In this document: positions 48,001 to 64,000 of the stretch, one piece after another
Position numbering within the stretch: the stretch's first letter is position 1
Layout of the letters: each line of letters opens with the position of its first letter
From: Candidatus Ancillula glyptotermitis
Lineage (GTDB): Bacteria; Actinomycetota; Actinomycetes; Actinomycetales; Bifidobacteriaceae
Length of the DNA: 64,000 nucleotides
Direction: 5' to 3'
Assembly (NCBI GenBank): GCA_031268675.1
Contig: JAIRWY010000055.1
Span: forward strand, 10,155-74,154
The notes under the pieces: model-generated
Database searches by the model: none
The model's input: the letters and a program-made list of their open reading frames with translations, nothing else
What the model was told of the DNA's origin: nothing
Translations under genes and position numbers: made by a program

Positions 48001-51000
48001 ACTTCAAATGTGAAGTTGAAACTACAACAGCTGGTGATCTTCCAACAACCTCGTTTGAAGCTTGCACAGGTGTAAATTTTGGCGCGGTTGAATATTCTAC
48101 AGCAACTAATCGCTACTCGCTTAAGGTTTCTGGACTAGAAGATGGCAAGAAGTACCGCTTCTGGGTTGCAAGTTATTCGCACACATTAGGTCAACTTGGC
48201 GAAAATGGAGCAGATGATAAAGCAACATCTCAAGAGGCTCAAACTGATGTAACACCTTCAATCTCGCTGAGTTTAACGCAAATGCCTGATAATGTTGAAC
48301 ATGGCAAGAATTATGTGCGCGTTGATTGGACTATGAGTAGAGCTGTCCATGACTGGGATACAACTGAGCAAGATCCAGTACTTGAACATCAGCCTGATGA
48401 GGAGTATAATATCAATATCAGCTATAAAGTGGGCAACGAAACTATTCCAATTGGCTTCCCTAGTCCGCAGTATATTTATCTTCCAGAGTCTGGTACTTCG
48501 TATGAATTCACAGCATCTGTTTCATCATCTTATACTTTGAGCACAACTAATCTTGATCCAACTCCTCAGAGTTTCCAGACTGCTGCTAAACCAGATATTA
48601 CATGGACAACTTATAATGCAGACAGTGATACTCCATATCCTGTCATCCAGAAGTTTGATACTGATAATGACTTGACTTGGATTGAGGCGAACTTCACAGC
48701 AAATAGAACACCGCTTATGAGTGAAGAACTTGATTATCATGTGGAAATTTGCAGAGCTAGTGAGGATTGCGGCGAAGGTAGTGCTTCTTGGCTTTCTGCT
48801 GGTGAAAATGCACATGTTGTTGGTGGCTCGGGAGAAGCAGAAACAACTGCTATAAAGACTGTGGAAATACCATCAAGCGTGTTTGAAAACGGAACTGCGT
48901 ATAAGATCCGCGTAAAGAGCACCTCAAACTTCACAGATTCTAAATATTCCACTGTTCAAGATATAACAACAGCTTCTGCGCCAAATGCTCCAACTTGGGA
49001 TGGATTTGGAGGTTCTGCAAGGCAAAGTAAAGAGGGAATAGCTTCTATATCATTCACACCATCAACAACTCCTGATGTATCTTATGTTTTGCTTTACAGA
49101 GAACATGGATCGACAGGTCCTTGGCAAAAACTACCAGTAAGTGACACATATGAGTATGTTGATACAAGTGTATGTTCACAACCTATTGCTGATGATGCAA
49201 GTGATGACCAAAGGAATGCATATGATACTGCATGTAATAAAGGTAAAGGTCATGTTACTCCTGAAGAGATTTGTAAAGATGGCAATAGATGTTTTGAGAT
49301 AAATTCTAGCCCTAGAGTAGACGGGTCTGGAAAAGTCATCAACCAAATGGGCGGTTTTGATGGAAATAAACTATATGATTTCCATATCACGGCTAAAATT
49401 GGTGCACTTTATTCAAATGATCTAGCAAATAAGGATAAACATACTGATGCAATAGCCTCAACTGGTCTGGTGCTTTCAACACTTGACAATTTGCAAGGAC
49501 ATGAATCGCCAGACTTTAGAGTTGACCTTTCAACTGATGATTCTTCTATTATGCGAGTAAGTTTGAAACCTGCACAATCTTATGTTGCATATGACCGCCA
49601 AATGGTTACCTATACGGTCGAATATCGTGATGTAACTAGTGAGGGTGCGTGGACTTCAATTATGAATACAGGTAATGGAGTTACTGTTAGCGGATTGAAT
49701 TCTAACGGTCTGTATAATATGTACAATAATGGAACTTGTAAAACTGATTATACAACTTGTGATTATGCTACAATTAGTGTAGGTAATTTGAATAGATCTC
49801 ATGATTACGAGGTGCGCGTTGTAACTTCAACAACTGCGGACCTTGAAAATACGCATGGCATAACTACTCTTAGCCACAAGTTCTTGCAAAGTCCAAGTGC
49901 TCCAACTGACTTCACCGCTACTAGTGCTGGAATTCAAGATGGTCAACAACAAGCAACATTTACTTGGACCAATTCCACTCTACCAGAAGATGGCGGTACT
50001 TTGGCAAAGCAACCACAAGCAGTACAGAACGCATACAAGATTACCTACAGTTTAGAAAGTTGTTCATCTAACTGCTCTAGTCCAGAAAATTGGGGCGTAT
50101 ATGGATCAAGCAGTGGTATTAACCCAGATTCGTCAGGTACAACTTCAGTGACTGTTGGTTTGAATGGCTCTGCAAGTGAATTCCGCGTGATTGCTTCTAC
50201 AATGCTTTTGCATGATAAAATTCCGTCTGCACATATTATCTATATACCAGGCGCTCAGACTATCAGCAACCTAGTAGTTAAGGGCAATTATTTGGAAAAT
50301 GCAGCTTCTCCAAGTACAATGAAGTTCACGCACACCAAGTCTATTGAAGGCAGTACTAGCTCTGATGTTATCTCGTATAGTTATGAGCTAGTTGATGATA
50401 GTTGCCAAGAGTTTGAAACTAATCCAGATGAGTGTACGCCTGTAAGTTATGCATCACCAAACGAAAATCTAGCATTAACCAGTGCTGATGCTAGACATGA
50501 AGATGTTGAAATTAAGGGATTAACTGCTGGAACTAAATACAAAGTGCGTGTTGTTGAGACTGCAAATGGAATTTCAATGAGGTCACAATATACAGCAAAA
50601 CTAGTCATGCCAGCAATACTTGAAGCTCCTAGTATTTCACCAGACCTTACATATGAGCAGATTACATCTGGAGAGGTGCTAGCAAATGACACATCAAGAA
50701 TGGCATTCACATGGGATGAGCAGTCAGTTGATTATTTCGGCGGTTTGAAATATCAGGTTGAATATAAGAAGTCTGCTGAGGGTACTTGGAATAAATTGAC
50801 TGATGAGCCTGTGGATGTTAACACCTATTGTGGAACGAATGCAGGAGAAGAAGATGGCAAGTGTCGCGTGGAAATCAACAACCTTAATGCAGATACTGCT
50901 TATGATGTGCGTGTGGTTCCTGTAACTTATCTGGGTAGAGGAGAAGCAACTGTGAACTACAAGACTGCTGGAAAAGTTGCGAATTTCTCAGATCCTGCAA

Positions 51001-54000
51001 AGGTACAACAAGGCGCAAATGCACTACTGCTATCTTGGGACAACTTAGGCTACACAGGAAGTGTTCCACTAGAGTTTAAGTTGCAGACCTGCACCGCGTT
51101 TAGTTCCACTGAATCAGGTGCTTGTGATACTTGGGCTACATTCAATTCTGGGGATTCTGTTAAGTCTAAAGCGGATATTCAAAATGAGGCTACTGGAACT
51201 GCAGTTACGTATGCATTTGCAGGTGGTAGTGCTAATATAGGCAACAATATAGTGAACGTTCAGGTTTCTGGTCTTACTCCACTAGCAGAATACAGATTCC
51301 GAGTGCTTGCTGCTCCTGCACTTTATAATTCGTCTGCCTTCACATATTTTGATAGATATGAGAGTATGCATGACTTCGGAGATATTGCACTACAAAGTGT
51401 TCCAGAATTTAACGAAGGTCAAGAATTGACTGCACATTCATTAGGAACTTTGGAAAATCCAGTATCTGGTCAAGTTAAAGTTTCTTGGTCAAATATTGCA
51501 ACTCACGGCGCATCTACAAACCCTGTTGATGTTACAAAGTATTTCCTTGTTGAAGGTAAGGGCGATTTCACGGCAGATCAAAGTGCGTGGTATAATAACC
51601 TAGGCGAAAATGTTCAGATAGTTCGTGAAATTGAGATTGGCGACGATAATGTTGATGATAATTATTGTACAACTTCTGGAGTGGTAGAAAATGCAACATG
51701 CGAAGTAACAATTAGCGGTCTAAATCCAGGTCAGAATTATACATATGCTGTTTATGCTACGAACATCTATGGAAACGGTAATGTCATCAAGACAAGAGTA
51801 ATGCCTGTAGAGTTCCCAACTGCTGTAGATGCATCATCTGCTTCAATTGAGCATGAAGTAAATGCGAGTTCAGGAAAAGTGAACGCTAAGTTTACACTTG
51901 CTGATTTGCAGAGCAGTGTTAACGGAGACCTCGAAAACTCTAGCAATAAAGAGACTCGTTTCATAATTCAGACTCGTAAAACTTCTGGTGAGGCTTTCCA
52001 AGATGCACAGGCTAGTGTTGATGATAAGACTTCTGCTAATTTAGCTAGTGGTATTGAACTTCAAGATCTTGATGAAAATGCAGAATATGAAGTTCGTATA
52101 ACACCTAGATCAGCTGCTGGAATTACTTCAAGTGGAAATATTACGAAGACCTTCACCACTGCTATTAAGCCAACTGGAGTTAGTGTGCAGGTTGCTCAAA
52201 CCACAGCAACTAGTGCTGAAATAATTTGGGATGCATCTACATATAATGGCACAAATGGTTCTACATTTAGTATCAAGGTTGAAGAATGCACAGATGCTGA
52301 TTGCACTTCTACAACTGATCAAACTTCTAGTGTCACTTTGAACACGGATATTACAAATAGAGTTTCAACGATTTCAGGCCTAGAAATCAGCCAGAAGTAT
52401 AAATTCTCTGTGGTTGAGACTATTGCCGGAGCATCTACAGCAGCAAGCGAAGAGTACACTACAACTTCAAGCGCGGTATTTGCACTAGCATCTTTACCAA
52501 TTGAGCCAGCTGAAGATACTTCCACTTCAAATGCACCATACTTCAACATTACAACCACTTTCTCTGAGGCTCCTGAAGTTGTTCCTGCAACAACTGTCCA
52601 ATTCCCAGTGTGGACGGCTACTGGAACTGGTGATATTGCGCGCATGATTAGTTATCAAGTCTGCTATAATACAGTTCACGAACCAAGTGTTGAAGATACT
52701 TGCCAAAATGCAACTATAGGAACTGGTGAGGTACAAGGTGAAAACGGAATTGCAGTTGGCAAAGTTGCAGCAACTATTGAAGATTTAGACGAGAGCCAAG
52801 TTTACCAGTTCAAGGTGAAAGCAACAAATATTGCTGGAACTTCAACTGGAAGTACCTCTTCAGGGTATTCATTTGCTGATGCTCCAGCGCTTGGTACAGT
52901 TACTTTCAACCAGATTGTACCAGGTACAGCTAGCGATACAGCAACAGTTCGTATTACCTTCAACACGCCAAATGCACCTGCAGGATCTGTTAACGAGCAT
53001 AAGGTATATGTTGGAGTAGGCGAGAGTCCTTCTAGTTGGACAGAGCATGAGTGTACATCAGTTGCAGATGCGACTCCTGGAATTACCCATTGCGATATAA
53101 CTACTCTTTCTCCAGGTACACTTTATACTTTCAAGGTGAAGACCACGAACTCTATTACTGGTAAAACGGACGAACAGTTAGGTGCAGTTACCACAAAACC
53201 AGAAGTTTCAGCCACAATTGAGGCTAACTATACTTCAAATAAGTCAATTGAAATTACGGCAGGTAATGGAAGATCTGGGCTTTTAGCAGATGAAGTGGAA
53301 AATTATACATTAACATATACATATTGCGACAATGACCAAACTTCACTAACTCCTTGTACGCCATCAACTGAAGAAACTGCTTGGAAATCACTTGCAGATG
53401 GAAACACTGATGTAAATAAACCAGTGCTAGAAAGTGACAAGAACAATGAGTGGAAGATAGTTAATGTACCAGATTATCGTACATATGCATTCAAAGTGAA
53501 CGTGTCGACTAATCTGTATTCAAGCACTTCTAGCGCAGATACAATTTCTAGCCTAATCTACACTGGTTATAAGCCACGTGAAGTAAATTCCGCGTTGACT
53601 ATAACTGAACCATCTGCAAATCAGGTTGTAGTTTCTGGATCTGAATTTTATACAACTGATGCAGGTACAACTTATCAGGTTGAAAAGTGTATAGTTGAGA
53701 ATCCAGATGATCTAGCAAATGCTTGCGCAGCAGATAATGATACTTTATGGAGTCAAGTTACAGGCACAGTTAACACTACAGAACACACAGTTACTGGCAC
53801 ATTTGATTCTAGTCAAATTACGGCGAACACAACATACAAGTTCCGTATTAAAGCAACTTCAGAGCATAATTCAACTGTTTATTACGCTGAAGGAACACCT
53901 GCTGTGTTTAGAACTGCAGGTACTTTTGACCTTGACTGGATAACAGAGCCAGTTCAAAATGGAGACGGTCAAATCACATTTAGCTATAAACTAGCAGATG

Positions 54001-57000
54001 CATATACAAGTCATGATAGAAGTAGTGTTGTCATCACTCCAACTGTTGTCCAAGCAGGCACAACTACACCTGCTGGAACTTTAAGTTGCGAGCCAGATCC
54101 ACAAAATGCGTATACATCTACAGTTACTTGCACAGTATCTTCCCTTGCTTCTGGTGAGTATACTGTACAACTACACGGAGTTGGTTCATATGCAGATGTT
54201 TATGAAACTACTACAAGTAAAAATGTCGAGGTGCTGACCCCATCTAGTCCTGCAAACTTTGAGATTGTGGCAAACTCAGAAAGTGTTCATGCAAATGCGT
54301 CATATTTGAACTTCTCATGGACACCAATTTCCTATTCACCACCTGTTGGTAGTTCAGATAATATCACGTATACAGTAAAAGCTACACCTGTAGATCCAAG
54401 TACTGGCAGCGAATTTGAAGTATGTCAAGTTGTTGGAATTACCCAAAATAGCTGCCAAATGAACACTGAAGAAAGTAGTCCTAAACTAGGTCTTGGAGAA
54501 AACTACACCTTTACGGTCATAGCAAGCAACACATTTGGAGCATCAGCAATTTCTGCAGCTAGTTCGCATTATAAAACAGCATATATTCCAAATGCGCATG
54601 GTGAAACAATAGATATGCATCAGGCGTTGGAGTTAGAGCAAGTATTCTCGCGCCAAACATCTATATCAATATCTGGTATTAATCATGTATATAATGGTAC
54701 TATTGCGTCAACAATTAAGGTTCAGTATAAAGATGCAGAAGATCAATGGCAAGATTTTGCATCTAATAGAGTAACGCAAACCACTGATGGTCAAGCTTTG
54801 AGCTTCTTGATTTCAGGTTTCACTGCAAAATCTGAGAACACCTTAAGACTAGTAGAAACATCTCTCGCAGGCACAACCTACCTCGAATTTAGCCCGTACA
54901 CGCTATATAGTGGTCCTAGAGAGGTCAATTCAGTGCTTACCCTCAAAGAACTTGCAAAGGGTACTGTATCGGTCGTAGGAGCCCAATTTGAGGCAAATAG
55001 AGCACCAATAACTGGCTATAGTATTCGCTACTGCTTAAAAGGGACTACGCCTGAAACTTGTCAAAATGACTTCACGCAAGTTGCAGCACATGTGGAATCT
55101 TCAGGTGATAATACTGGTAAAGTAGTTCCAGATGCAGAAATTTCTGGCTTGAACCTGAATAAAGACTACTATTTCTGGGTTGTTGCATCTACAAATGAAG
55201 GAAATACTGAAGGTACTAAGAACTTGATACACACTGCAAGTGACTTCTCAATAGCCTGGGTAGACGGTCCAGTTCAAACAGGTCCTGGAACTATCAAATA
55301 CTCCTATAAACTAGCAGATGGTTATAAGGGTGATGATATTGCGGACATCAATTTCACATCAACTATCACAGTCAATGTAGATGGAGTTGACGAAGTTGTT
55401 AATGTTTCAGCAGATAAATGCTCGGTCAAGAGTGGAGCAGTTGCGGATGGAACTGCAGTTTATGAGTGCACTGTTAATGGCTTGAACAAGAATGTGGACG
55501 GAACTTGGAGGTATAAGACTGGTTCACCTCAAAGTGGAAATAACGTCTTCTTGCATGAGGTTAAGGTTAATGCAACTTCACAGCTTGGATATCAAGCGCA
55601 AAATCCAATTACAGCAACTATAGATGTCTATTCTCCACAAAGAGTTGCATCTTCTGGTCAGTCAAATGTATCTGTCACTCAGATTATTCCAAGTCAAGAC
55701 TATACCGATAATGTGCAAGATCGCCTAGAAGTACCAATGTACACGGTTAAATGGGCGTTGAACACAGGTGATAAGGCGTATGCAACTGGAACAGTTAATT
55801 TTGAGGTTCTAGTAGATGGTATTAAGGCTGAAGATTGCACAGTTGCTACTTTAACAGGCGATAATCATACATATGAGTGCACAATTAAGGGTCGTACTAC
55901 TACTGCAGCTCAAGAAACTATTACTGTTCGCACAACTCATTCAACTTTGGGCACTGCTGACGGAAATGGCCGAAAGATTACCCCTAAGACATTGCCTAAA
56001 CCATCAATAAGCTATTCATATCCTGGCAAGAAGTTCAACTTGGTGCCACAGTTGCTCGGACGTTCGGAAACTTCTTTATTGACTGATACAACAGTAGTTA
56101 ACGGAGCTAATGATGAGAAGTTTGAATATGATTTGTGCTATTTATCTACAGAAAAGGATCAACAAGGAGTTTGGCCATCAACAGAGGATTGGGATAGTGC
56201 AACTTGTGTATCTAATAACTACACTGATGCAGAAAATCCAAGTCAAGAAAATACTGGTGCATTGCAACTCAAGTGGGTGCCAGATGATGTTTATTCAAGT
56301 GTTGGTAAAGGCTCTTGGGTTGCTGAAAACTTGGCAGTTGACACTCAGCAGTATATATTCCGTTTGACTGCAAAGACTAGACTTTATAAGCAAGTTGGTG
56401 TTTTCACTTCTCCAAAGATTACTACTGACAACAAGCCTAGTGAAGCAGGTAATATTGATATTTCTCAATATGAAAACACTATTACAGTTTCTGAGCCGAA
56501 GTTCATCACGCAGTCCTTGCCAATTGACCATTATGAGGCTCAGGCATGCCCAACTGGAAGTAATTGTACTGCGGATGCTGCTTGGCAGACTGTTCAAGCA
56601 TTGACAGGATCAGAAAATGTTTCTGCACAATTTAATGTGGCAGCAACTAAGGCAGCTGCAAATGCGGCAAAAGATATGGGAGTGGTTGCTCTAGCGCCAA
56701 ATACCGAATACAACTTCAGAATTGTGGCATTTGTTGAAGGTGAACGAACAGCTGGAGGAGCTCTCTCATTTGCTATTGCTGGAAACTTTAACCTTGAGCA
56801 AGTTGGTAATGTATCTCAAAGTGCTGGTGATAAATTGGAGTTCAAGTTCAAGCTCGCAAATGACTACATCGGAAATGACAAAGCTCAGATTTCATACAGC
56901 ATTCCAACTGTATCTGGTGCATCTTTAGTTACTTGCAAGTTTGATGGAATTGATGATGTTTTGACACCTCCAATCATCAATGGAGATGCTAATAAAACTG

Positions 57001-60000
57001 TTGACTGCCAAGCATCTGGATTAACTGCTGGAGATCACACCATCAACATTACTGGAACTGGTCTGTATGGTAACACTGGATCGCTGACGCTAACTGGCAC
57101 AATTTTCAAGCCTAATGCACCAACGGAGGTCCATGTTGAAACAGGTACTGAGACAAAGCAGGAGTTTGAAGACAGTAACTATTCATATGTTTCTGTTAGT
57201 TGGACTCCACCTGCAATTAACGATGCTGTTAAACCATTTAGTTACAAGATTTATGCAACTCAAGTAGGTGCTGGTCATAATCCAGTTGAATTTTGCCAAG
57301 TTGTAGGAAATGAAACAAACCAGAATCCAAGTACATGCGCTGTTTCTAGCCCAATTGCTGCTGGTCTTGCATTTAATACGGACTACACTTTCACAGTTGT
57401 CGCATTTGACAAGTATGGAACTGCTTCTGATATTTCTGCACCAAGTTCTATATTCCACACGATGTTTGAAGAGCCAGAAACAGCACCAATTGTGCCAGCT
57501 GATCAGACACTTGTTGTTAAGCAAACTGCGCTTGGACAGGCAAATGTGGTTGGTAATCCATTTACATCTGTTAACAACTTGGCTATTGACTACAAGTTAG
57601 CATACTGCAAGGAAGTTGCTGAAGGTGTAGGTTGTGATGATTCAATTACAAGAGTCAACGCATCTTTAGACGTTGATTCAGCTAGCGGAAACTTCGGCAA
57701 GGTTGTTGGTGATGTTACTTCTGGTTTATCCGATTCTACGCATTATTTGTTCTGGTTTGAAGCAACTTCTGTAAATGGATTAACCAATAGCGGTATGAAT
57801 AAGGCTGAGTTTATAACCGCAGGTCCAATTTTACTTAAGTGGTTATCTGCTCCTGCTAAGAACGGCGCTGGCGAGTTGGTGTTCCAGTTTGACCAAGATA
57901 ACTACATCGGTTGGGATGCACAGCAGGTTACTTATGCTGTAACTGTAGATGGAGCAACACTTGGAACTTGCATGCCAAATGGAGAAGGTTCAACTGCTAG
58001 AACTTGCACCAAGCCAAATATTGCTGTTGGATCCCATACTATTGAAATAACAGCAACAGGTAAAGCTTCAAATACAGGTAAATTAACATATAGTGCAGTT
58101 ATCACAGAACTTCCTGCACCGCTTGCCCCTATAATTACTGGTGAAGAAAAAGATGCAACTGGCAGCGGAATTACTCTGCATATGACATTTACTGTTCAAG
58201 ATGAGTCTAGTTTTGCAAATGTTGGACACAAGATTGATATATATGATGTAGATGGATCGACAGTTACAATTAGTGGACAGCAGCCACAAGTTAGTTGTAC
58301 AGGCTTTACATGTACTGCTTCAGTTCAAGGTCTAATACAGAACACTGTATACAAGTTCAAGGCAGTTACTACATCTGATAGTCCAGATCTTGCATCTAGC
58401 TTCTCAGAAACTTACCACACAGCATATACTCCAACTGCTTTAACACCTGCGCCAACTGTAAGACAAGGCTATGATATCACTGGTCAAGAAAAGACTTCAG
58501 TTGTTATTGAAGGAATACATTCTTCGTATGCAGGTACTGAGCCTAGTGAGTTTAAGCTAGAAAAGTGCACAACTTGGGTTGTTGAAGGTTCAACTTGCTC
58601 CGCTTGGGAGGCAGTTCCACCAGAAAATGTTGCATATTCTCAAAATGCTGGAATTGGCAAGTTCGTTGTAACTGGATTAACTCAAGATGCGCTTAATGTT
58701 CTAAGAGTGGATGAAACATCAATTGTAGGTACACATGAAAACGCTAGTTTACCAATTGCACTTGTGATGGGTCCTGTTAAACCTGCTAATGCTCCTGTTG
58801 TTACTCAAACAGGAAATGCATCTGCTGGATTAGTAACTGTTGTATCCGAACCGTTTACGCATACTCCAGGTGCTGTTATAACTTCATATACTTTGAAATA
58901 CTGCGAGCTTGATGAGAGCAACAACTGCATTGGTATATTTGAACGACCTGCGAACATAATAACGGACTCCAATGAAGGAACAGTTGGCAATGTTAAGGGA
59001 TCTGTTAGCGGACTAGATCCAAACAAGTATTACAAGTTCTGGATAACAGCGACATCAGCAATTGGAACTACAGCTGGAGATGCAACAGTATTAGCAACTG
59101 CAGGTCCACTTACTATCACTTCTACTACTCCTGTTCAAACTAACGCTGGTGAGTTGAAATTCTCCTATAAACTAGATAGTAACTACATCGGAAATGACAA
59201 AGCAGCTGTGAGATTTAGTGCACCTACTGTTGATTCTGGTTCAACTTCTTGCATACTTGAAGGAGGATCAGATGCGGTTACTTATCCACATGTTGTTGGA
59301 GCAGATAATACGCAAATTAACTGCACAGTTTCAGGATTACAAGCAGGTTCACATACAATTCATTTAAGTGCAACTGGTAGTTATTCAAATACTGGTTCGT
59401 TAGATATAACAGGAACTATTTTCAAGCCTGCTGCACCAACTAATGTAACGGTAGATGGAGCAACTGAAATTAGTGTAGACAATGGCGGAGCATATCATGT
59501 ATCTGTTTTAGTTGCATGGACTCCAATTTCAACCACAGGCGTGCCAGCAAGTGCATTACCGATTACATACAAGGTGTACGCTTATGATCAGGCAAATCCA
59601 ACTGTTAAGATTGAATACTGTACAGTAAATACCAACAGCAATTGTACACCTGATACAACAAGTGCAGGTTTGGACTTCAACAAGACATATACATTCACAG
59701 TTGAGGCAGTAGATGCATTTGGTACAACTTCAGGTGAATCTGCTCCAAGTTCTTCATTCCACACGCGGTTTGAGACACTTGAGCAAGCACCAGGAATTCC
59801 AACTAACCCTGCACTAACTGTTCGTCAAACTGAACTTGGAAAAGCAGATATTACTGGTGAACCGTTCACATCTACTAATAATCTACCTATTAGTTATCAA
59901 TTAGCATACTGTAAGAAAGATGCAAGCACTAAGAACTGCAATGCGGGAGACACATTATATACAGTTCCAGCCATCTTTGATACAGAATCTGGTAGTGGTA

Positions 60001-63000
60001 CTGAAAACAAGGTGGTTGCTAATATTACTGCGAACTTGGCTAATTCAAGTGATTATGTCTTCTGGTTAAGAGCATCTTCAGTTGGTGGTTCAAATGAGAC
60101 TGCTTTAGAGCAAAGGACTGAATTTACAACTGCTGGTCCTATCCCAATCAAGTGGTCATCTGCTCCTGCTAAGAATGCCGCTGGTAATTTAACATTCACC
60201 TTCAGTATTGACACATACAAGGGCTGGGACAAAGACGATGTTGCATATGAGGTTACTGTGGATGGACAACCTCTAACATGCGAGGCAAGTGGAAATGGTC
60301 AAACTTGTACAAAACTAGCGATTACGGCAACAACGCATACTATTCATGTTCATGCAACAGGTAAAGTTTCAAATACAGGTGATCTGGACTTCTCAGCAGT
60401 CATTACAGAACTTCCTTCTCCTCTTGCGCCTGAAATAACTTCTGAAAGTGTAAACGGAACTGATGCTAATAAGGTAGATTTAACAGCTACATTTACATAT
60501 CCAGATGAAAGTGGTATTTCACCTACTCCTGAACATAGCGTAAAAGTATATACAGCAACTGGCGAAGAAGTTAGTGGACTTACGACTAACACCAATTGTA
60601 CATCAGAACATGTATGTACTGCTTCAGTTCAAGGACTAGACCAGAACACTGTATACAAGTTCAAGGCACTATCAAAATCAGGCAGTAGTGAACTTCTATC
60701 TAGTTTCTCAGGAACTTACCACACAGCATATACTCCAACTGTTTTAACACCTGCGCCAACTGTAAGACAAGGCTATGATATTGCAGGTCAAGAAAAGACT
60801 TCAGTTGTTATTGAAGGAGTTAGCTCTTCGTATGCAGGTACTGAGCCAACAACATTTGGACTTGAAAGGTGTAGTGCATTTGATGGTGATACATGCAGTA
60901 CATGGACTAGTCTAGTTGTAAATACAGACTACACATTTGATAAGGACAGCATGAAGTTCATCGTAACTGGTTTGTCGCAGGGTTCAGTTGAGGCATTTAG
61001 AGTAACCGAGACTTCAATTACTGGAAATGCACAAACGCAAACTCCTAAGATTGAACTAACTACAGGACCAAATGCTCCTGAAGGAAAACCAATAGTTACT
61101 CAAACAGGAGTTCAAAGTGCAAGAGTTGTATCTGAGCCGTTCGTATCCACAGGTACTCCAATAACTTCTTATGTGCTGAAATACTGCAAAGTAGATATTA
61201 GTGGTGACAACTGCAATGATGTTGAAACAACTTCAGCTGTTTTGGTTACAGATAGTAAGGATACCAACTTCGGTAAAGTAAAAGCAAATGTTCAATTAAA
61301 CAGCAACCAGCATTACAAGTTCTGGTTTGAAGCTACTTCTTTAATAGGTACAACCTTAGGTCAGGACAGTGATGTATTTACTATGGCTGGAAACTTTGCA
61401 ATAACAAATGGTACTATTGCTCAGACTGCTAGTGATAAGTTAGCGTTTAGCTTCAAGGTTGCAGATGGTTATAATGGAAGTGATGCAAATAATATTGTAC
61501 TTGCTCTTCCTGTTGTACAAGGTGGAATTGTCAAGTGTGCTGTTGATACAGAAGAAGGCATGACAACTGATGCAACTAGAGACATTACAGCTGGAAGTAC
61601 AATCTACTGCGTAGCAGAAGGTCTAGCAGTTGGAACTCACCAAGTAAATATCAGTGCATCTGGCAAGTTTGACAATACAGCAACTACAACTTTAACAGGC
61701 GTAATTGCAAAACCAAGTATTCCTACAAATGTGCATGTAAATACTACAACTGAGACAAAGCAGGACTTTGAAGGCAGTAACTATTCATATGTTGAAATTA
61801 ACTTTGATCCAATAAGTTATCCTGTAGGAACTGTTAACATTACTTATGAAGTTTATGCAAAACAAACAGGTCAAAATCCAGTTAAGGTTTGTCAGGTTAG
61901 TGCTTTGGCAAATCAGAACACTTCTTCTTGTACAATGACTAATTCAGCTGCTGGTCTTAATTTCAACACAGATTATACCTTCCAAGCTGAAGCAGTTGAT
62001 GCATTTGGAACAAGTTCTGGTATTTCTGCTCCGTCTACTATATTCCACACGATGTTTGAAGAGCTTGAAACAGTACCAGGACTTCCAAGCAACCAGGCTT
62101 TAACAGTTTCTCAAACTGCGCTTGGAGCTGCACAAGTAGTTGGTGAACAATTCACATCAGTTAATAATCTGCCAATTAGCTACAAGTTAGCATACTGCAG
62201 AAAAGCAGAAGGCTCATCTGGTTGTCAAGATTCTGTAACTAGAGTCATATCTAGTGTAGATACAGATGCAAATAGTGGAAACTACGGCAAAGTTGTTGGT
62301 AATATTCCTTCTGGTCTGCTAAATTCAACAGATTATTTGTTCTGGTTTGAAGCAACTAGCCAAAATGATTTAACTAACAACACTATGAATAAGACTGAGT
62401 TCACGACTGCAGGACCAATTTTGCTCAAGTGGTCGCAAGTTCCGAGCAAGAATGCTGCTGGTGCGCTAGTATTTGGATTTGAACCTAATAACTACAAGGG
62501 CTGGGATAGTGCGCAGATTGCATATGAGGTGGAAGTTGATGGACAACCTCTAACATGCGAGGCAAGTGGAAATGGTCAAACTTGTACAAAACCAGGCATT
62601 GCAATTGGAGCACATACTATTCATGTTCATGCAACAGGTAAAGCTTCAAATACAGGTGAACTTAACTACAACGCCAATATTGCAGAACTTCCTTCTCCTC
62701 TTGCGCCTGTAATAACTGGTGAAAGCGTAAACCAAACTGATAACAACAAGGTAGATTTAACAGCAAGTTTCACAATTCAGGACGAAACTAGTTTAACTGA
62801 ACCTGTTCATAAGATCAAGGTGTATAATAATGATGGATCAGTTGCTAAAACTTCAGACGAAATAGAAATAGAGGTAAATGCTACTTGCTTAGGAGCAACT
62901 GCTGAATCTGCTTGTACAGCTACAATTGAAGGACTAGGCCAAAATACAGTATACAAACTAAAAGCTGTAACAACTCAAGGAGCTGATTCTTTATCTTCAC

Positions 63001-64000
63001 CGTTTAGTGAACCTTATCATACAGCATACTTGCCAAATGTTCCAACAGGTGCAAATATTCATCAAGGTGTAGAAGTTTCTGGTCATGAAAAGACTTCAGT
63101 TGTTATTGACAATATAACATTTAACTATAGCGGAACACACCTAAGCGAGAAGTACGTTGAAGAATGTACAACATTTGGTGGAGCAACTTGCATAACTTGG
63201 ACAAAGGTTACAAGTAATATAGAATATGCGCAAGATCAAACAACTAGTAAAGGCAAGTTCACAATTACAGGACTTGAAGAGAATTCTAAACATGAATATA
63301 GAGTTGTAGAAAAGTCTATAGCAGGAGAAACTCCAAGTGAAGGTATGACAATTGAGTTAGCGGCTGGACCGACAAGCCCAGAAAGTGCACCAATAGTTAC
63401 TCAAACAGGAGTTGGAAATGCAAGAGTTGTATCTGAGCCGTTTGCATCTGCATTCTCTCCGATTTTGTACCAAGTGAAGTATTGCCAAGTCCAAAACGAA
63501 CAAGGAGATGGATGTGTAGATATTGAGTCAACAACTGCATCAACAGTAACAGATTCACATGATGAAAATTACGGCAAGGTCAAGGCAAATATTACAGGAC
63601 TAGAAGCAAATAAGTACTACAAGTTCTGGATAACTGCAACAAATGTAGTAGGTTCAACTGATGGTTTGACAACTATAAGTAAGACTCTTAGGGTCGTAAA
63701 GCCAGTTTATGCACCAACTGCTCCAGTTATTTTGCCAAGTGAAGAATCGCTAGTCCAAGTTGAGTCTGATGTTAAATCACAGCTAGTGGTAAGATTTACT
63801 ATACAAGATGAAACTGACAACGATGAGTTAGAGCATCTAGTTCATGTTTATAATGCTAGTGATGAAGAAATTTCCTTGCTTGAGACTGCTGCAACGTGTA
63901 TAGGACGTAATGCTGGTTCTTTCTGCACAGCAACAATTTCTGGACTAAATCTTGGGGAAGTTTACAAGTTCAAGGCTGAAGTTAAGGTTGCTGATTCAGA
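1..64000 (+). CDS. Internal fragment of a single giant ORF with both ends outside the window. It encodes a repetitive extracellular fibre/adhesin-like protein: GLUG beta-helix modules, then an Ig-like junction, then an Fn3/Ig-like array
   Basis: Frame +3 (codons start at positions divisible by 3) gives 21,332 sense codons from nt 3 to 63,998. Codon-by-codon hand translation at more than 25 places gives stop-free, domain-like sequence in the same phase. These include nt 3-1,920, 28,141-29,640, 32,581-36,300, 45,001, 50,041, 60,121-60,420 and 63,661-64,000. The first in-frame ATG is at nt 90, so any later in-frame stop would have produced a listed + ORF. None of the 39 listed + ORFs is in frame 3 (38 are frame 1, one is frame 2, maximum 118 aa). 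The longest - strand ORF is 190 aa. Recognisable protein motifs (GLUG, Fn3, glycine-rich domain) occur throughout. Confidence 0.96.
3..1568 (+). repeat. GLUG beta-helix module M0 (head truncated by the window start)
   Basis: The window opens at the end of a head ('NIGLFGS', nt 9-29). GLUG rungs follow, e.g. 'NVGTGGLVG' at nt 264-290, plus 'VSGGLVG', 'VAGGLVG' and 'IVGGLVG'. The C-cap is 'GWDF' at nt 1,479-1,490 and 'YPKLAW' at nt 1,548-1,565. Confidence 0.7.
1833..3515 (+). repeat. GLUG beta-helix module M1 (head, rungs, C-cap)
   Basis: Head 'GGGTGQASNPFKIRTAKDLDNLHRFFG' starts at nt 1,833. The C-cap is 'GWDFEW' at nt 3,402-3,419 and 'IMPQLYW' ending at nt 3,515. Confidence 0.7.
3555..5201 (+). 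repeat. GLUG beta-helix module M2
   Basis: Head 'DGGSGTNADPYRIATAQQLDNLHKYLG' starts at nt 3,555. 'GWEPIG' is at nt 3,804-3,821. The C-cap 'DAPWTIDNGKDRPRLAW' ends at nt 5,201. Confidence 0.7.
5376..7334 (+). repeat. GLUG beta-helix module M3
   Basis: Head 'GTDTIPCLITTPEQFDDLH' starts at nt 5,376. 'WDPIG' is at nt 5,565-5,579. The C-cap 'RRPVWHAFEDEHASPILDW' ends at nt 7,334. Confidence 0.7.
7554..9188 (+). repeat. GLUG beta-helix module M4
   Basis: Head 'DGSSTKPFTIRTEQELWQMRLF' starts at nt 7,554. 'WDPIA' is at nt 7,830-7,844. The C-cap 'KIPIFYW' ends at nt 9,188. Confidence 0.7.
9375..11492 (+). repeat. GLUG beta-helix module M5
   Basis: Head 'TGTAEDPCKITSAEDL' starts at nt 9,375. 'WDPIG' is at nt 9,531-9,545. 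Rungs include 'GGFVG' near nt 10,560 and 10,640. The C-cap 'NWDIGPGETHIWNKQDGKLPVLSW' ends at nt 11,492. Confidence 0.7.
11679..13343 (+). repeat. GLUG beta-helix module M6
   Basis: Head 'GNDEHPCVISTPKQLQSINKF' starts at nt 11,679. 'EWLPIG' is at nt 11,967-11,984. The C-cap 'TWDFDPQAGKSARLFW' ends at nt 13,343. Confidence 0.7.
13494..15980 (+). repeat. GLUG beta-helix module M7
   Basis: Head 'GWSSANPCLIRNVKEFNQLRLF' starts at nt 13,494. 'WDPIG' is at nt 13,680-13,694. The C-cap 'KPKWFIKDGQMNHPHLWW' ends at nt 15,980. Confidence 0.7.
16185..18509 (+). repeat. GLUG beta-helix module M8
   Basis: Head 'GWTEDNPCLVSTQKELDEVRYF' starts at nt 16,185. 'GWLPIG' is at nt 16,422-16,439. Rungs are mostly GGI[VAI]G, e.g. 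'VVGGIVG' near nt 17,170. The C-cap 'RPTWVMPAEGQGYPRLAW' ends at nt 18,509. Confidence 0.7.
18747..20708 (+). repeat. GLUG beta-helix module M9 (degenerate head)
   Basis: Head 'TGTGGNGTSQNPFEVANVVDLDHMRYF' starts at nt 18,747. I found no clear W-x-P-I-G equivalent in this head. The C-cap 'SPWQKNDGFNQNLPYLYW' ends at nt 20,708. Confidence 0.6.
20859..23273 (+). repeat. GLUG beta-helix module M10
   Basis: Head 'GESWKNPCVVETIADLNVMKLY' starts at nt 20,859. GGF[VA]G rungs include 'IGGFVG' near nt 21,687 and 'VGGFAG' near nt 21,770. The C-cap 'NWDTSYSL...KMPTWYIDPTFASIP' is weaker than in other modules and ends near nt 23,273. Confidence 0.55.
23382..26264 (+). repeat. GLUG beta-helix module M11 (longest, about 960 aa)
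   Basis: Head 'GNGNAGYEIRDLQELSNLRYF' starts at nt 23,382. 'GWSPIG' is at nt 23,580-23,597. The C-cap 'NFGMPMLGW' ends at nt 26,264. Confidence 0.65.
26394..28016 (+). repeat. GLUG beta-helix module M12
   Basis: Head 'GSAQNPCLVGDPYELDNVRYF' starts at nt 26,394. 'GWHPIG' is at nt 26,631-26,648. The C-cap 'HPNWYADLTRHAYPMLGW' ends at nt 28,016. Confidence 0.7.
28584..29530 (+). other. Glycine-rich domain of the ALK/LTK type (Pfam Gly_rich-like), nested in module M13
   Basis: Verified translation reads 'YSQNFSYKNAAQTFTAPESGDYSLEVWGAQGG...LGGNGGYAKGKIHLTAGQNLYVYTGQN...GKKGGGAGGGASDIRV...LYSRIIVAGGGGGHASD...GGVGGGTSGGAGG...GRGGSQTGGGQFG...YFGGGGGGGWYGGGGGASYG...TGGGGGSGYV...GHAGNGAARIIQL'. The order of the blocks (F-T-A-P-x-x-G-x-Y-x-L-E-V-W-G-A-x-G-G start, GGGA-S-D-I-R, R-I-I-V-A-G-G-G-G-G, poly-Gly-W/Y-Y-G-G-G, G-N-G-x-x-x-I end) matches what I remember of this family. 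Confidence 0.7.
29709..29729 (+). repeat. In-frame (TCT)7 microsatellite encoding Ser7
   Basis: Read directly as tct x7, translating '...SQNT-SSSSSSS-DAIKVGVGGFAG'. Confidence 0.9.
30753..32660 (+). repeat. GLUG beta-helix module M14 (last one)
   Basis: Head 'GAGTQTDPCIVVNAKQLDSIHDW' starts at nt 30,753. 'GWSPVG' is at nt 31,032-31,049. Rungs are GG[VI]IG, e.g. 'RVGGVIG' near nt 31,285. The terminal cap 'GISMPYLRSF' ends near nt 32,660. Confidence 0.65.
31869..31886 (+). repeat. In-frame (TAC)5-TAT microsatellite encoding Tyr6
   Basis: Read directly as tac x5 followed by tat, translating 'GDS-YYYYYY-RFTSYRLY'. Confidence 0.9.
32847..33194 (+). other. MBG-like adhesin stalk domain (tentative)
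   Basis: 'PTFTISGTGAKQARENIGSGSHFDIIKGSGTDPNGVLAYEENGPNEQIVNAGTYSIAGGSL...NAYQSYVLANKNPYYQASFDFTKFYEVKQIPAKLEIK'. The pattern '...AGTY-x-I ... N-Y ... x-I-x-P-A-x-L-x-I' resembles MBG domains of large bacterial surface proteins. This is recognition by eye only. Confidence 0.4.
34278..34635 (+). other. YDG-like domain (tentative)
   Basis: 'DRKELTVTGAIADRQYNGKTNADWAGGRYPSLQGLVAGTDQVEINQPVPTFVDPATGDGKHVYL...GKDAHNYMVTQPSAFSASI'. It follows the L-T-V-T-G-x-x-A-x-[DK]-[RK]-x-Y-[DN]-G-x-T-x-A and G-L-V-x-G-D-x-V layout typical of YDG domains. Confidence 0.45.
35835..36248 (+). other. First Fn3 domain of the array (fully hand-translated exemplar)
   Basis: 'PDEPKDLQVMQLLNGSNEGEVSAVITWKGAQAQELANKSNTILKYNLQMKTVEAEQWTDISALIPPCTSSCDAQTDFRLEIYNTEEYGSGSQITLNSGTDYVFRVRANNEIQGTGYPSAVNDGVGDGPWATTSFKTFS'. 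Confidence 0.8.
35835..53915 (+). repeat. Array of about 45 consecutive fibronectin type III (Fn3) domains, mutually divergent at the DNA level
   Basis: The Fn3 signature P-x-x-P...W...Y-x-[VIL]-x-Y...W...L-x-P/G-x-x-Y-x-[FV]-x-[VI]-x-A recurs every ~100-150 aa. Verified F-strand examples are 'DYVFRVRANN' (nt 36,132-36,161), 'AYRFRVQAVN' (~39,426), 'KYRFWVASYS' (~48,150), 'EYRFRVLAAP' (~51,291) and 'TYKFRIKATS' (~53,835). The domain count is by eye and was not computed. Confidence 0.85.
53916..55235 (+). repeat. Divergent proto-unit of the super-repeat (Ig-like domain followed by about 3 Fn3-like domains)
   Basis: It starts 'AGTFDLDW...'. The Ig-like head contains 'FSYKLADAY'. The 17-mer ctataaactagcagatg at nt 53,984-54,000 recurs exactly 1,320 nt later at nt 55,304-55,320. 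Confidence 0.55.
55236..56777 (+). repeat. Second divergent proto-unit (Ig-like domain followed by Fn3-like domains)
   Basis: It starts 'ASDFSIAWVDGPVQTGPGTIKYSYKLADGY', which is the same head motif as the unit at nt 53,916. Confidence 0.55.
56778..59099 (+). repeat. Seven-domain super-repeat, copy 1 (Ig-A, Fn3-a, Fn3-b, Ig-B, Fn3-c, Fn3-d, Fn3-e; about 774 aa)
   Basis: It starts 'AGNFNLEQVGNVSQ'. By-eye domain borders are at about nt 57,111, 57,471, 57,819, 58,111, 58,431 and 58,771. It shares near-identical DNA tracts with copies 2 and 3 (see findings). Confidence 0.75.
59100..61385 (+). repeat. Seven-domain super-repeat, copy 2
   Basis: It starts 'AGPLTITSTTPVQTNAGELKFSYKL'. Ig-B was verified at nt 60,130-60,410: 'AGPIPIKWSSAPAKNAAGNLTFTFSIDTYKGWDKDDVAYEVTVDGQPLTCEASGNGQTCTK...HTIHVHATGK'. 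Confidence 0.75.
61386..63690 (+). repeat. Seven-domain super-repeat, copy 3
   Basis: It starts 'AGNFAITNGTIAQTASDK'. It contains a 55-nt tract (62,538-62,592) identical to nt 60,261-60,315 in copy 2. Confidence 0.75.
63691..64000 (+). other. Partial Fn3 domain (Fn3-c type) running off the 3' end of the window
   Basis: 'VVKPVYAPTAPVILPSEESLVQVESDVKSQLVVRFTIQDETDNDELEHLVHVYNASDEEISLLETAATCIGRNAGSFCTATISGLNLGEVYKFKAEVKVADS'. The frame is still open at nt 64,000. Confidence 0.65.

Follow-up and report, generated by a model that had tools for sequence, protein, structure and literature searches.

A single reading frame with three seven-domain units

The window, by which we mean the whole 64-kb stretch of DNA that was analysed, is spanned by one reading frame. 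Frame +3 is free of stops from nt 3 to nt 63998, and the number of stops in each of the remaining frames is 895–2,326. The first part of the encoded protein within the window, from aa 1 up to about aa 10,750, is made of GLUG-like, Gly-rich modules; 37 mutually dissimilar Fn3 domains and then the super-repeat zone come after it. No period was detected among the 37 upstream Fn3 domains. By the window's own profiles, 57 Fn3 and 8 Ig-like domains were counted across aa 11,938–21,332. The features are listed below, with D1 to D7 giving the position of a domain within its unit.

3..63998, + strand: single open reading frame, 21,332 codons without a stop, with both ends open; the super-repeat occupies the last 11%
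53916..55235, + strand: four-domain, precursor-like unit (D1-type Ig-like, D2-type Fn3, D6-type Fn3, D7/D3-type Fn3)
55236..56777, + strand: irregular segment (degenerate Ig-like domain without GxHTI, an unclassified stretch of about 285 aa, and one Fn3)
56778..59099, + strand: unit 1, 774 aa
56778..57107, + strand: unit 1 D1, Ig-like, long form, with Cys pair and GDHTI
57108..57467, + strand: unit 1 D2, Fn3 (30.4 bits with Pfam fn3, exceeding its cut-off of 25)
57468..57818, + strand: unit 1 D3, Fn3-like, type C, paralogue of D7
57819..58106, + strand: unit 1 D4, Ig-like, short form (AF2 pLDDT 90.6, seven strands)
58107..58424, + strand: unit 1 D5, Fn3-like by the window's own Fn3 profile
58425..58769, + strand: unit 1 D6, Fn3-like, middle Fn3 of the triple
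58770..59099, + strand: unit 1 D7, Fn3 (Pfam fn3 23.1 bits)
59100..61385, + strand: unit 2, 762 aa; domain starts D1 59100, D2 59424, D3 59772, D4 60132, D5 60408, D6 60729, D7 61065
60255..60420 (approximate, in unit 2), + strand: patch shared with unit 3, a 33-site same-codon run at identical residues
61386..63689, + strand: unit 3, 768 aa; domain starts D1 61386, D2 61710, D3 62058, D4 62409, D5 62685, D6 63027, D7 63366
63702..63998, + strand: D5-like Fn3 (D5 profile 52.8 bits), directly after D7 with no Ig-like domain between

The super-repeat consists of three tandem units of seven domains in the order Ig-like, two Fn3, Ig-like, three Fn3. A sequence-only reading of this DNA had placed the unit starts at AGNFNLEQ (nt 56778), AGPLTITS (nt 59100) and AGNFAITN (nt 61386), and all three are in frame and read as quoted. 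The lengths it gave (2,322, 2,286 and 2,304 nt) were borne out, and end-to-end alignment of the units in pairs yielded 50–52% protein identity; DNA identity is 59–61%. The third unit is likewise real, but its last nucleotide is 63689 and not 63690. In BLASTP, units 1 and 2 matched with 634 bits (E = 0, 49% identity over 777 columns).

The proposed periodicity of about 2.3 kb was borne out. A self dot-plot of the whole protein contained one densely self-similar stretch, which starts near aa 17,750 and continues to the end. In a 21 × 21 domain matrix, equal positions across units scored 63–150 bits and unlike positions 0–32 bits, the exceptions among the latter being D1/D4 (32–56 bits) and D3/D7 (44–68 bits). 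Mean identity was 21% for adjacent domains and 51% for domains seven or fourteen positions apart; no adjacent pair exceeded 27%. D4 is the best-kept position (61–67% identity between units), and the number of Cys residues is exactly two in all 21 of the 21 domains. Tandem Repeats Finder reported no repeats in the sequence, as expected from a period of 2.3 kb (its limit is 500) and an identity of 60%. An assembly artefact or collapsed repeat was considered and rejected, since the copies are just 60% identical in DNA.

Two classes of domains within the unit

HMM, profile-profile and structure-prediction tests upheld the sequence-only reading in its domain classes, in their borders and order, and in the number of copies. 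An iterated Fn3 profile built from the window found all 15 domains at D2, D3, D5, D6 and D7 (E 1e-15 to 1e-24). It scored 20–54 bits per repeat on canonical Fn3 arrays and at most 3 bits on Big_13 arrays. The gathering score of Pfam fn3 (PF00041) is 25 bits. In single-domain scans of units 1 and 3, this model gave 30.4 and 18.5 bits for D2, 23.1 and 21.8 bits for D7, 14.3 bits for D6 (unit 3 only) and no match for D3. D5 matched only Pur_ac_phosph_N in these scans, weakly and in unit 1 only (16.9 bits); we take this family to be an Fn3-like one. At E <= 0.01, Pfam fn3 recognised 6 of the 15 Fn3-like domains when they were scanned singly; on whole units it scored 33–50 bits, above the gathering score. 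The model of a unit is all-beta with 6–8 strands per domain and of moderate to low confidence in D6-D7 (pLDDT 30–70), and Foldseek matched it to the leptin receptor, gp130, contactin FN1-3, PTPRD FN4-6 and titin A77-A78 (E 7e-14 to 1.5e-5). The profiles classify D2, D3, D5, D6 and D7 as divergent Fn3 domains; for D3 and D5 this class is suggested by internal homology together with the model.

The profile of D1 and D4 finds only 8 copies in the window, all of them between aa 17,972 and 20,895. Pfam Big_13 (PF19077, gathering score 27 bits) weakly matched two of these eight members, at best with 14.9 bits (E = 0.038) and hence below its gathering score. The other weak Pfam matches of D1/D4 were He_PIG, TIG, Cadherin_5 and Big_9; fn3 was absent. 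Cross-scoring gave 15–20 bits per repeat for the D1/D4 profile on Big_13 arrays and less than 8 bits on Fn3 arrays. Among 1.84 billion representatives scanned, the D1/D4 columns matched three proteins (P0013, P0026 and P0027; E 9e-7 to 5e-5), and 3 of 3 are Big_13 arrays (E 1e-37 to 1e-71). A search of PDB sequences with the D1/D4 profile returned no significant match. The AF2 model of D4 (pLDDT 90.6, pTM 0.80, seven strands) resembles the Sas6 Ig-like domain, CopC, the lipin Ig-like domain, MHC-II, ICAM-1 and filamin in the PDB (Foldseek TM 0.5–0.64, E 8e-4 at best). The sole Fn3-type entry among its top 50 PDB matches is the atypical Fn3-like module of CbhA, at rank 10.

On this sequence evidence D1 and D4 are assigned to an Ig-like class of their own, distantly similar to Big_13 and distinct from canonical Fn3; by the Pfam criterion they count as distant relatives of Big_13 only, not as members. 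The model predicts for D4 a beta-sandwich of the Ig-like/E-set type. The sequence-only reading was right about a non-Fn3 Ig-like class, but these domains are Big_13-like or E-set-type rather than of the I-set of titin.

Alternatively, D1 and D4 may belong to the Fn3 lineage of their neighbours and be highly divergent members of it. The array would then be all Fn3, and the Ig/Fn3 analogy to titin would be nominal. Profile-profile alignment (hhalign) places the Cys pair and the 'GL..G.HTI' strand of D1/D4 onto the Cys pair and the 'GL...Y.F.V' strand of Fn3, but with a probability of only 17%. Among PDB sequences the D1/D4 profile fits an Fn3 domain best, although not significantly, and the one Cys pair is common to all domain types. 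The strand number of D4 is the same as that of Fn3, and the CbhA module stands among its fold matches; the best of these matches are nevertheless Ig-like or E-set and not canonical Fn3. Furthermore, the iterated Fn3 profile never reached D1 or D4 with the HMMER filters switched off, their weak Pfam matches are to Ig-like families only, and the library proteins that match them are Big_13 arrays. We therefore regard an all-Fn3 array as rather unlikely and keep the two-class description.

Internal order, flanks and divergence of the units

Comparison of positions by hhalign gave 99.3% for D3 and D7, 98.6% for D1 and D4, and 82.8% for D6 and D7, while D2 and D5 matched weakly. By these data the unit is composed of a triplet and a quadruplet. 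The claim that like domains are always separated by six unlike ones goes too far: the paralogous positions D1/D4 (28–46% identity) and D3/D7 (36–43%) are spaced by only 3–4 positions.

Of the two proto-units proposed upstream, the one at nt 53916 is real. It has four domains that read D1-D2-D6-D7 (37.0, 41.0, 25.1 and 39.6 bits, in order). The one at nt 55236 can be called a proto-unit only loosely: it starts with a degenerate Ig-like domain, but GxHTI is missing, about 285 aa are recognised by no profile, and one Fn3 follows. This irregular segment is colinear with two relatives, L001 and L002. As had been predicted, the pattern changes past unit 3. From nt 63689 on the Ig-like domain is missing and the D5-like Fn3 adjoins D7; the window then ends. 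At the colinear place, L001 is organised as D1-D2-D3-(D4-D2-D3)x2, i.e., with a period of three domains, and the seven-domain register is thus not conserved.

Between units, dS is about 1.1 and dN/dS about 0.42. The longest same-codon runs between units were reached in 4 of 5000 and 0 of 5000 shuffles. The run shared by units 2 and 3, which contains an exact DNA word of 55 nt, belongs to the latter case (0/5000). Such codon-identical patches point to gene conversion between units.

The most likely history would begin with an Ig-like-Fn3-Fn3 triplet that was duplicated and gained one extra Fn3, giving a block (Ig-A-C)(Ig-A'-B-C). Tandem duplication of this seven-domain, 2.3-kb block would then have lengthened the stalk, and the copies would have been maintained by purifying selection (dN/dS about 0.4) with occasional gene conversion between units. 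Since the duplicated block would already have been heterogeneous, neighbours would stay at most 27% identical, with copies seven domains away at about 51%. The low identity of neighbours also fits the avoidance of misfolding, for which divergence of neighbours was proposed by Borgia et al. 2015 (PMC4660218). It could also follow simply from the duplication of a block that was heterogeneous from the start. Near-identical neighbouring repeats are tolerated in many bacterial adhesins, and hence no selection for diverse neighbours need be assumed.

Source, likely role and comparison with known systems

The protein with the super-repeat is most likely bacterial. For the protein as a whole no named or characterised homologue was found. 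Peptide-pattern scans with the unit alignment and with the D3-D4 alignment gave pattern matches but revealed no relative in 185,579 prokaryotic species genomes, metagenome and viral contigs, and plasmids searched by tblastn gave zero matches. An exact 50-mer taken at nt 63,8xx was absent from the genome, viral and metagenome contigs. Homologue searches with unit 1 and with the 757-aa frame of L001 returned no protein, the one of L001 itself included, under a word filter of 8,000 candidates that seems saturated for sequences so close to low complexity. The N-terminal GLUG-like modules (10,750 aa) had no above-cut-off match in Pfam or NCBIfam; NCBIfam scans of N-terminal pieces returned only ZmpA and SSL13, both sub-threshold. 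A homologue search with the Gly-rich modules led to PF12810 'glycine rich' proteins of about 900 aa and unknown function (phage, Blautia, Nomurabacteria). The host frame, with more than 21,332 codons, ranks among the longest uninterrupted prokaryotic frames reported and has almost no relatives within public protein collections.

It appears improbable that the window is non-bacterial and stems from an intron-poor eukaryote, e.g., a gut flagellate in the source material of L002, or from a very large virus. The assembly that contains L002 was made from Trichonympha-associated material (PMC11707648), phage proteins are among the named relatives of the N-terminal modules, and neither an exact DNA word nor peptide patterns located the source in the 185,579 prokaryotic species genomes. 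However, the frame is uninterrupted for 64 kb, both the Gly-rich modules and the Ig-like domains have their closest relatives among bacterial or phage proteins, and there were zero matches in viral contigs. In addition, the GC contents of the window (about 41%) and of L002 (48%) lie inside the range of the genus Ancillula (43 ± 5%).

With a probability of roughly 0.7, we consider the region to be part of the stalk of a giant secreted, fibre-like surface protein, lengthened in this zone by duplication of a block that grew from an Ig-like-Fn3-Fn3 triplet. Its role is most likely that of a long disulphide-stabilised stalk or spacer, which was extended via block duplication. In the model each domain has one Cys pair on neighbouring strands, which makes one disulphide per domain likely. 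With a rise of about 4 nm per domain, one unit would form a rod of about 27 nm, and three units would span about 80 nm. The anatomy, domain classes, periodicity, inner 3+4 structure, conversion patches and the differing period of L001 are observed, while the extracellular location, the disulphides, the rod or spacer function and any selective value of neighbour diversity are inferred.

The units might instead act as a periodic scaffold or ruler that presents the same binding surface every 27 nm or so to a periodic partner. Candidate partners would be further molecules of the fibre itself, an S-layer, a sheath, or a surface lattice of host or prey, in analogy to the titin A-band and the thick filament. 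Conservation is indeed position-specific and far exceeds the similarity inside a unit, with D4 kept best; dN/dS is about 0.42, the units are kept alike through gene conversion, and titin provides a precedent (PMC10665226). On the other hand, any block duplication leaves position-specific similarity, just three copies lie within the window, and the 37 upstream Fn3 domains are aperiodic. Moreover, there is no known partner, and the three-domain period of L001 implies that the register of seven is not conserved. We hold a ruler to be unlikely. More far-reaching still, and very improbable, is a bacterial 'molecular ruler' of which the units are only the section in view, and whose titin-like register of about 27 nm templates or binds a periodic extracellular or envelope assembly and was reached by the evolutionary route of the titin D-zone, in a possible endosymbiont with a genome of 1–2 Mb.

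A long stalk or spacer has counterparts among the bacterial fibrillar adhesins, such as the Mobiluncus mulieris adhesin (7,651 aa, 51 Ig-like domains; PMC10619420) and the long-stalk adhesin MpAFP/MpIBP of Marinomonas (1.5 MDa; PMC3492233). They share with the protein described here very long chains of beta-sandwich domains of about 100 aa, covalent stabilisation within domains (by cross-links there, by Cys pairs here) and a presumed function as spacer that projects other modules off the cell. Their stalks repeat one domain type, often in almost identical copies, whereas the repeated object here is an ordered seven-domain block of two classes with about 50% identity. The protein is also at least three times longer, and, with both gene ends outside the window, no signal peptide, anchor or secretion signal is in view. 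In the rods SasG (G5-E) and Ebh (FIVAR-GA) of Gram-positive bacteria, unlike modules alternate and identical folds are not adjacent, which was proposed to limit misfolding and to yield a stiff rod. These differ in their unit of two modules instead of seven, in their folds, and in copies that are far more alike.

In Omnitrophota and other bacteria, giant genes form single frames that run to tens of thousands of codons and encode repetitive extracellular domains. A protein of 25,000 aa with fibronectin and haemagglutinin-like repeats is mentioned among them; HEAT, TPR, dockerin and thrombospondin repeats make up the archaeovorin and dockerin types, and no Ig/Fn3 super-repeat is described (bioRxiv 10.1101/2023.11.21.568195). 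The comparison covers frame length and repeat composition.

The unit of the titin D-zone is [Ig-(FnIII)2-Ig-(FnIII)3], present six times (Labeit/Kolmerer; reviewed in PMC10665226), so the order of domains noted by the sequence-only reading does match the published one; three full tandem copies are found here. As in titin, domains at equal positions resemble each other more than those of the same unit. The '-AC-ABC' logic of titin is likewise recognisable, with D3 like D7, D2 weakly like D5 and an extra middle Fn3, and the proposed history is the same: duplication of Ig-Fn3-Fn3, then addition of one Fn3. There are also differences. The Ig-like domains of titin are I-set, which those described here are not; every domain here has a Cys pair; the middle Fn3 is nearest to type C (D6 to D7), whereas titin type B is equidistant from A and C. 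There are 3 visible copies versus 6, a thick-filament partner is absent, and relative L001 lacks the seven-domain repeat.

The profile of the unit matched a single entry among PDB sequences, titin chain 8g4l (22.3 bits). No single stretch of this match is significant, and it thus reflects a summed generic Fn3 signal. Horizontal transfer from titin was rejected, specific similarity being absent. The missing specific homology and the three-domain period of L001 argue for the convergence that the sequence-only reading had presumed: the likeness to titin is most likely lineage-specific, with an independent origin by block duplication. With two Ig-like domains in seven positions only three cyclic orders exist, so the coincidence of order by itself is weak evidence.

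The units may be viewed as a natural replicate of the domain grammar of titin in an unrelated, probably bacterial protein. The finding suggests a general way to lengthen very long beta-sandwich chains while neighbours are kept dissimilar, namely to duplicate blocks of heterogeneous domains. The domains are small and recombinant-friendly with one Cys pair each, and natural variants with periods of three and of seven domains both exist, which together offer a test system for effects of domain order on folding and mechanics.

An open frame that spans the window

Frame +3 is free of stop codons from nt 3 to 63998 of the forward strand (21,332 codons, open at both ends), and every other frame contains 895-2,326 stops. 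No ordinary gene was found within the 64-kb window (GC about 41%). Since the frame is open across the entire window, the repeat described below belongs to a single giant protein, and 21,332 codons with both ends open correspond to more than about 2.2 MDa. The ORF is among the longest uninterrupted ORFs known. Its product (amino acid positions refer to the frame +3 translation) comprises the following zones:

nt 3-32250 (aa 1 to about 10,750), + strand: zone 1, irregular Gly-rich modules
nt 35814-53915 (aa 11,938-17,972), + strand: zone 2, 37 consecutive Fn3 domains, defined by an iterated Fn3 profile
aa 17,972 to the end, + strand: zone 3, the one block with strong self-similarity in the dot-plot, holding the super-repeat

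Zone 1 contains seven module heads of the type DP[FYC]xIxTAxDLxxL...DIDL (aa 619, 1193, 3130, 4503, 6958, 9398, 10257) and 78 GG[LIMF][VIAT]G motifs. Comparison of its modules with Pfam and NCBIfam gave no match above cut-off; in the library, the proteins nearest to them are PF12810 'glycine rich' proteins of ~900 aa, with named members from phage, Blautia and Nomurabacteria. From nt 1-32000 to nt 32000-64000 the GC skew drops from 0.13-0.24 to about 0.05, a shift that matches the extent of the Gly-rich stretch (GGN codons) and not a replication feature. At the transition from the Gly-rich part to the Fn3 tract there is a YDG (PF18657) match below cut-off (E = 1.2e-4; nt 34290-34480, + strand, aa about 11,430-11,490), and an Ig_J_second match falls within that tract, at about aa 12,280-12,330. 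BLAST finds virtually no similarity among the 37 Fn3 domains of zone 2, which also show no period. Unclassified gaps of 116-334 aa occur in this zone at aa 12,875, 13,302, 14,536, 15,448, 16,077 and 17,735.

Three tandem copies of a seven-domain unit

The sequence-only reading had described three tandem units of ~2.3 kb (U1-U3, starting at nt 56778, 59100 and 61386), each with the order Ig-Fn3-Fn3-Ig-Fn3-Fn3-Fn3 (D1-D7). All three starts are in frame and encode the residues it had quoted, the units (774, 762 and 768 aa) can be aligned over their full length with 50-52% identity (U1 versus U2 in BLASTP: 634 bits, E = 0), and the dot-plot is strongly self-similar from aa 17,972 on. Tandem Repeats Finder reported no match in the repeat, as expected for a period of 2.3 kb at 60% identity. 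The pattern also changes past U3 as had been noticed: a D5-like Fn3 domain directly follows D7, with no Ig-like domain, and the window then ends. At the DNA level the units are 59-61% identical (dS about 1.1, dN/dS about 0.42), so they are old, selected copies; the same values rule out an assembly artefact as their origin.

Each unit was divided into seven domains at conserved junctions. Scoring all domains against each other (a 21 x 21 matrix) gave 63-150 bits for equal positions in different units and 0-32 bits for unequal ones, except D1/D4 (32-56) and D3/D7 (44-68). Mean identity is 21% at a separation of one domain (maximum 27%) and 51% at both 7 and 14, and it rises slightly at 3-4 and 10-11.

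All 21 domains, of either class, contain exactly two cysteines apiece (nt 56778-63689). In the structure model of D4 they are residues 51 and 63, on neighbouring strands (51-53 and 61-65). These pairs suggest one disulphide per domain, and such disulphides would point to an exported protein.

The units resemble one another in a mosaic fashion. U1 and U3 are closest in D2-D3, U1 and U2 are 90% identical across the D5/D6 junction (93-96% identical codons), and U2 and U3 show a like pattern across D4 and early D5. The shared-codon patches are:

nt about 58440-58520 versus 60740-60820, + strand: U1/U2, with a 39-nt exact word
nt about 60255-60420 versus 62530-62700, + strand: U2/U3, with a 55-nt exact word

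The longest same-codon runs were matched in 4 of 5000 shuffles for U1/U2 and in 0 of 5000 for U2/U3. We read these patches as gene-conversion tracts between units.

Two domain classes within the unit

Pfam fn3 was matched in all three units when these were scanned whole, and at E <= 0.01 in 6 of the 15 domains at Fn3 positions. When the domains of U1 and U3 were scanned singly, D2 alone reached the gathering score (in U1), D7 stayed slightly under it, D6 was weak and seen in U3 only, D3 had no match, and D5 matched only Pur_ac_phosph_N (U1 only), which we take to be an Fn3-like domain. An iterated profile made from the window's own domains recognised all 15 (E 1e-15 to 1e-24) and added 42 Fn3 domains in frame, 37 of them upstream, 4 in the precursor segments preceding U1 (nt 53916-55235 and 55236-56777) and 1 after U3. 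With HMMER filters off, this profile never reached D1 and D4.

The D1/D4 profile converged on exactly 8 domains, all within aa 17,972-20,895, and profile-profile comparison with the Fn3 class gave a probability of 17%. Weak Pfam matches of D1/D4 were all Ig-like (Big_13, E = 0.038; He_PIG, TIG, Cadherin_5, Big_9), with no fn3 among them. When 1.84 billion representative proteins were scanned exhaustively with the unit profile in HMMER, only 48 reached E <= 0.001. Three of the four inspected proteins best matched on the D1/D4 columns (P0013, P0026, P0027) are Big_13 arrays, as a scan of these three showed; the fourth, P0012, also scores on the D1/D4 profile. As a cross-control, the D1/D4 profile gave 15-20 bits per repeat on Big_13 arrays and under 8 on Fn3 arrays, and the Fn3 profile gave the opposite pattern.

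AlphaFold2 modelled D4 as a seven-strand sandwich (pLDDT 90.6), whose best fold matches in the PDB are Ig-like/E-set, with modest E-values (8e-4 at best): Sas6, CopC, lipin Ig-like, MHC-II, ICAM-1 and filamin. The sole Fn3-type entry in the top 50 is the atypical Fn3-like CbhA module. The whole-unit model (pLDDT 69; D1-D5 good, D6-D7 poor) matched chains of Fn3/Ig receptor ectodomains. Profiles, cross-control and D4 fold matches thus uphold two classes per unit. The label 'Ig' holds for a separate Ig-like class and not for titin's I-set: D1/D4 are divergent bacterial Ig-like domains which, being under Pfam's own Big_13 threshold, are not members of Big_13.

Origin of the array and comparison with titin

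Only two relatives were found, both short contigs. The first (L001; JGI sample 3300042596, Ga0466696_414807, 3,970 nt, GC 47%) aligns colinearly with aa 18,499-19,485 at 41% identity and has the order D1-D2-D3-D4 followed by D2-D3-D4-D2-D3, i.e., a three-domain period, which makes the seven-domain register lineage-specific and the array evolutionarily plastic. A lone in-frame TAG within its D2 (nt about 1692-1694; Tyr in the window) may stem from an error in sequencing, mark a pseudogene or serve as a readthrough site. The neighbouring product on this contig (P0001) was recovered by the exhaustive HMMER scan in a related collection. The second (L002; AXYY01000145.1, 5,611 nt, GC 48%) is part of the Ancillula trichonymphae type assembly (GCA_000485475.1); this species, of the Bifidobacteriaceae, is an endosymbiont of flagellates in the termite gut (genus GC 43 +/- 5%; PMC11707648). 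The assembly is a lead to the source of the window (GC about 41%), short of an identification since the contig could be a contaminant; contig-level searches for the source gave no match. L002 is colinear with aa 17,530-19,070 (30-45% identity) and ends within D2 of U1; the contig (nt 59-732 and 726-5380) requires many frame changes, reflecting either a pseudogene or error-rich sequence. In it a Gly-rich module directly adjoins the counterpart of aa 17,530; in the window, 17,000 aa lie between these two regions.

The best-supported reading is that the super-repeat, predicted to form part of the stalk of a giant fibre that is exported, was probably lengthened by tandem duplication of a seven-domain block that was heterogeneous beforehand. 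When such a block is duplicated, adjacent domains stay unlike each other as a matter of course (27% identity or less). This low identity fits the proposal that homologous domains lying side by side diverge and so avoid misfolding (PMC4660218), whether the diversity was selected or incidental. On the titin figure of 11 domains per ~43 nm, i.e., about 3.9 nm per domain (PMC10665226), each unit would add about 27 nm. A role of the seven-domain register as ruler or scaffold is possible but disfavoured by the three-domain period of L001 and the aperiodic upstream Fn3 tract.

Within the unit, hhalign paired D3 with D7 (99.3%), D1 with D4 (98.6%) and D6 with D7 (82.8%), and D2 weakly with D5 (E about 2e-3). 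The 'proto-unit' proposed at nt 53,916 is indeed a unit, of four domains (D1-D2-D6-D7). Together these results describe the unit as (Ig-A-C)(Ig-A'-B-C). The titin D-zone consists of six copies of [Ig-(FnIII)2-Ig-(FnIII)3] with Fn3 types '-AC-ABC', and tandem duplication of Ig-Fn3-Fn3 followed by addition of one Fn3 has been proposed as its history (PMC10665226). Both domain order and an inner arrangement of the -AC-ABC type are thus common to the two systems, and the parallel exceeds bare domain order. The likeness is convergent, as had been presumed: in a PDB sequence search the unit profile matched only a titin chain (22 bits, no single significant stretch), through the summed generic signal of its many Fn3 domains. 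By our count, two Ig-like domains among seven positions can be arranged in only three ways that differ cyclically (0+5, 1+4 or 2+3 Fn3 between), one of which follows directly because a single Fn3 added to a duplicated triplet yields it; the match with titin is a modest coincidence.

With this super-repeat the domain grammar of titin has a natural replicate, in an ORF notable for size and isolation. For bacterial super-repeats of this type, full-text literature searches returned only titin papers and adhesin stalks of a single domain type, and the repeat types in a survey of giant genes of Omnitrophota and other bacteria differ (bioRxiv 10.1101/2023.11.21.568195). We rate the finding as a variant on a known kind, the repeat-built stalk of a giant surface protein.
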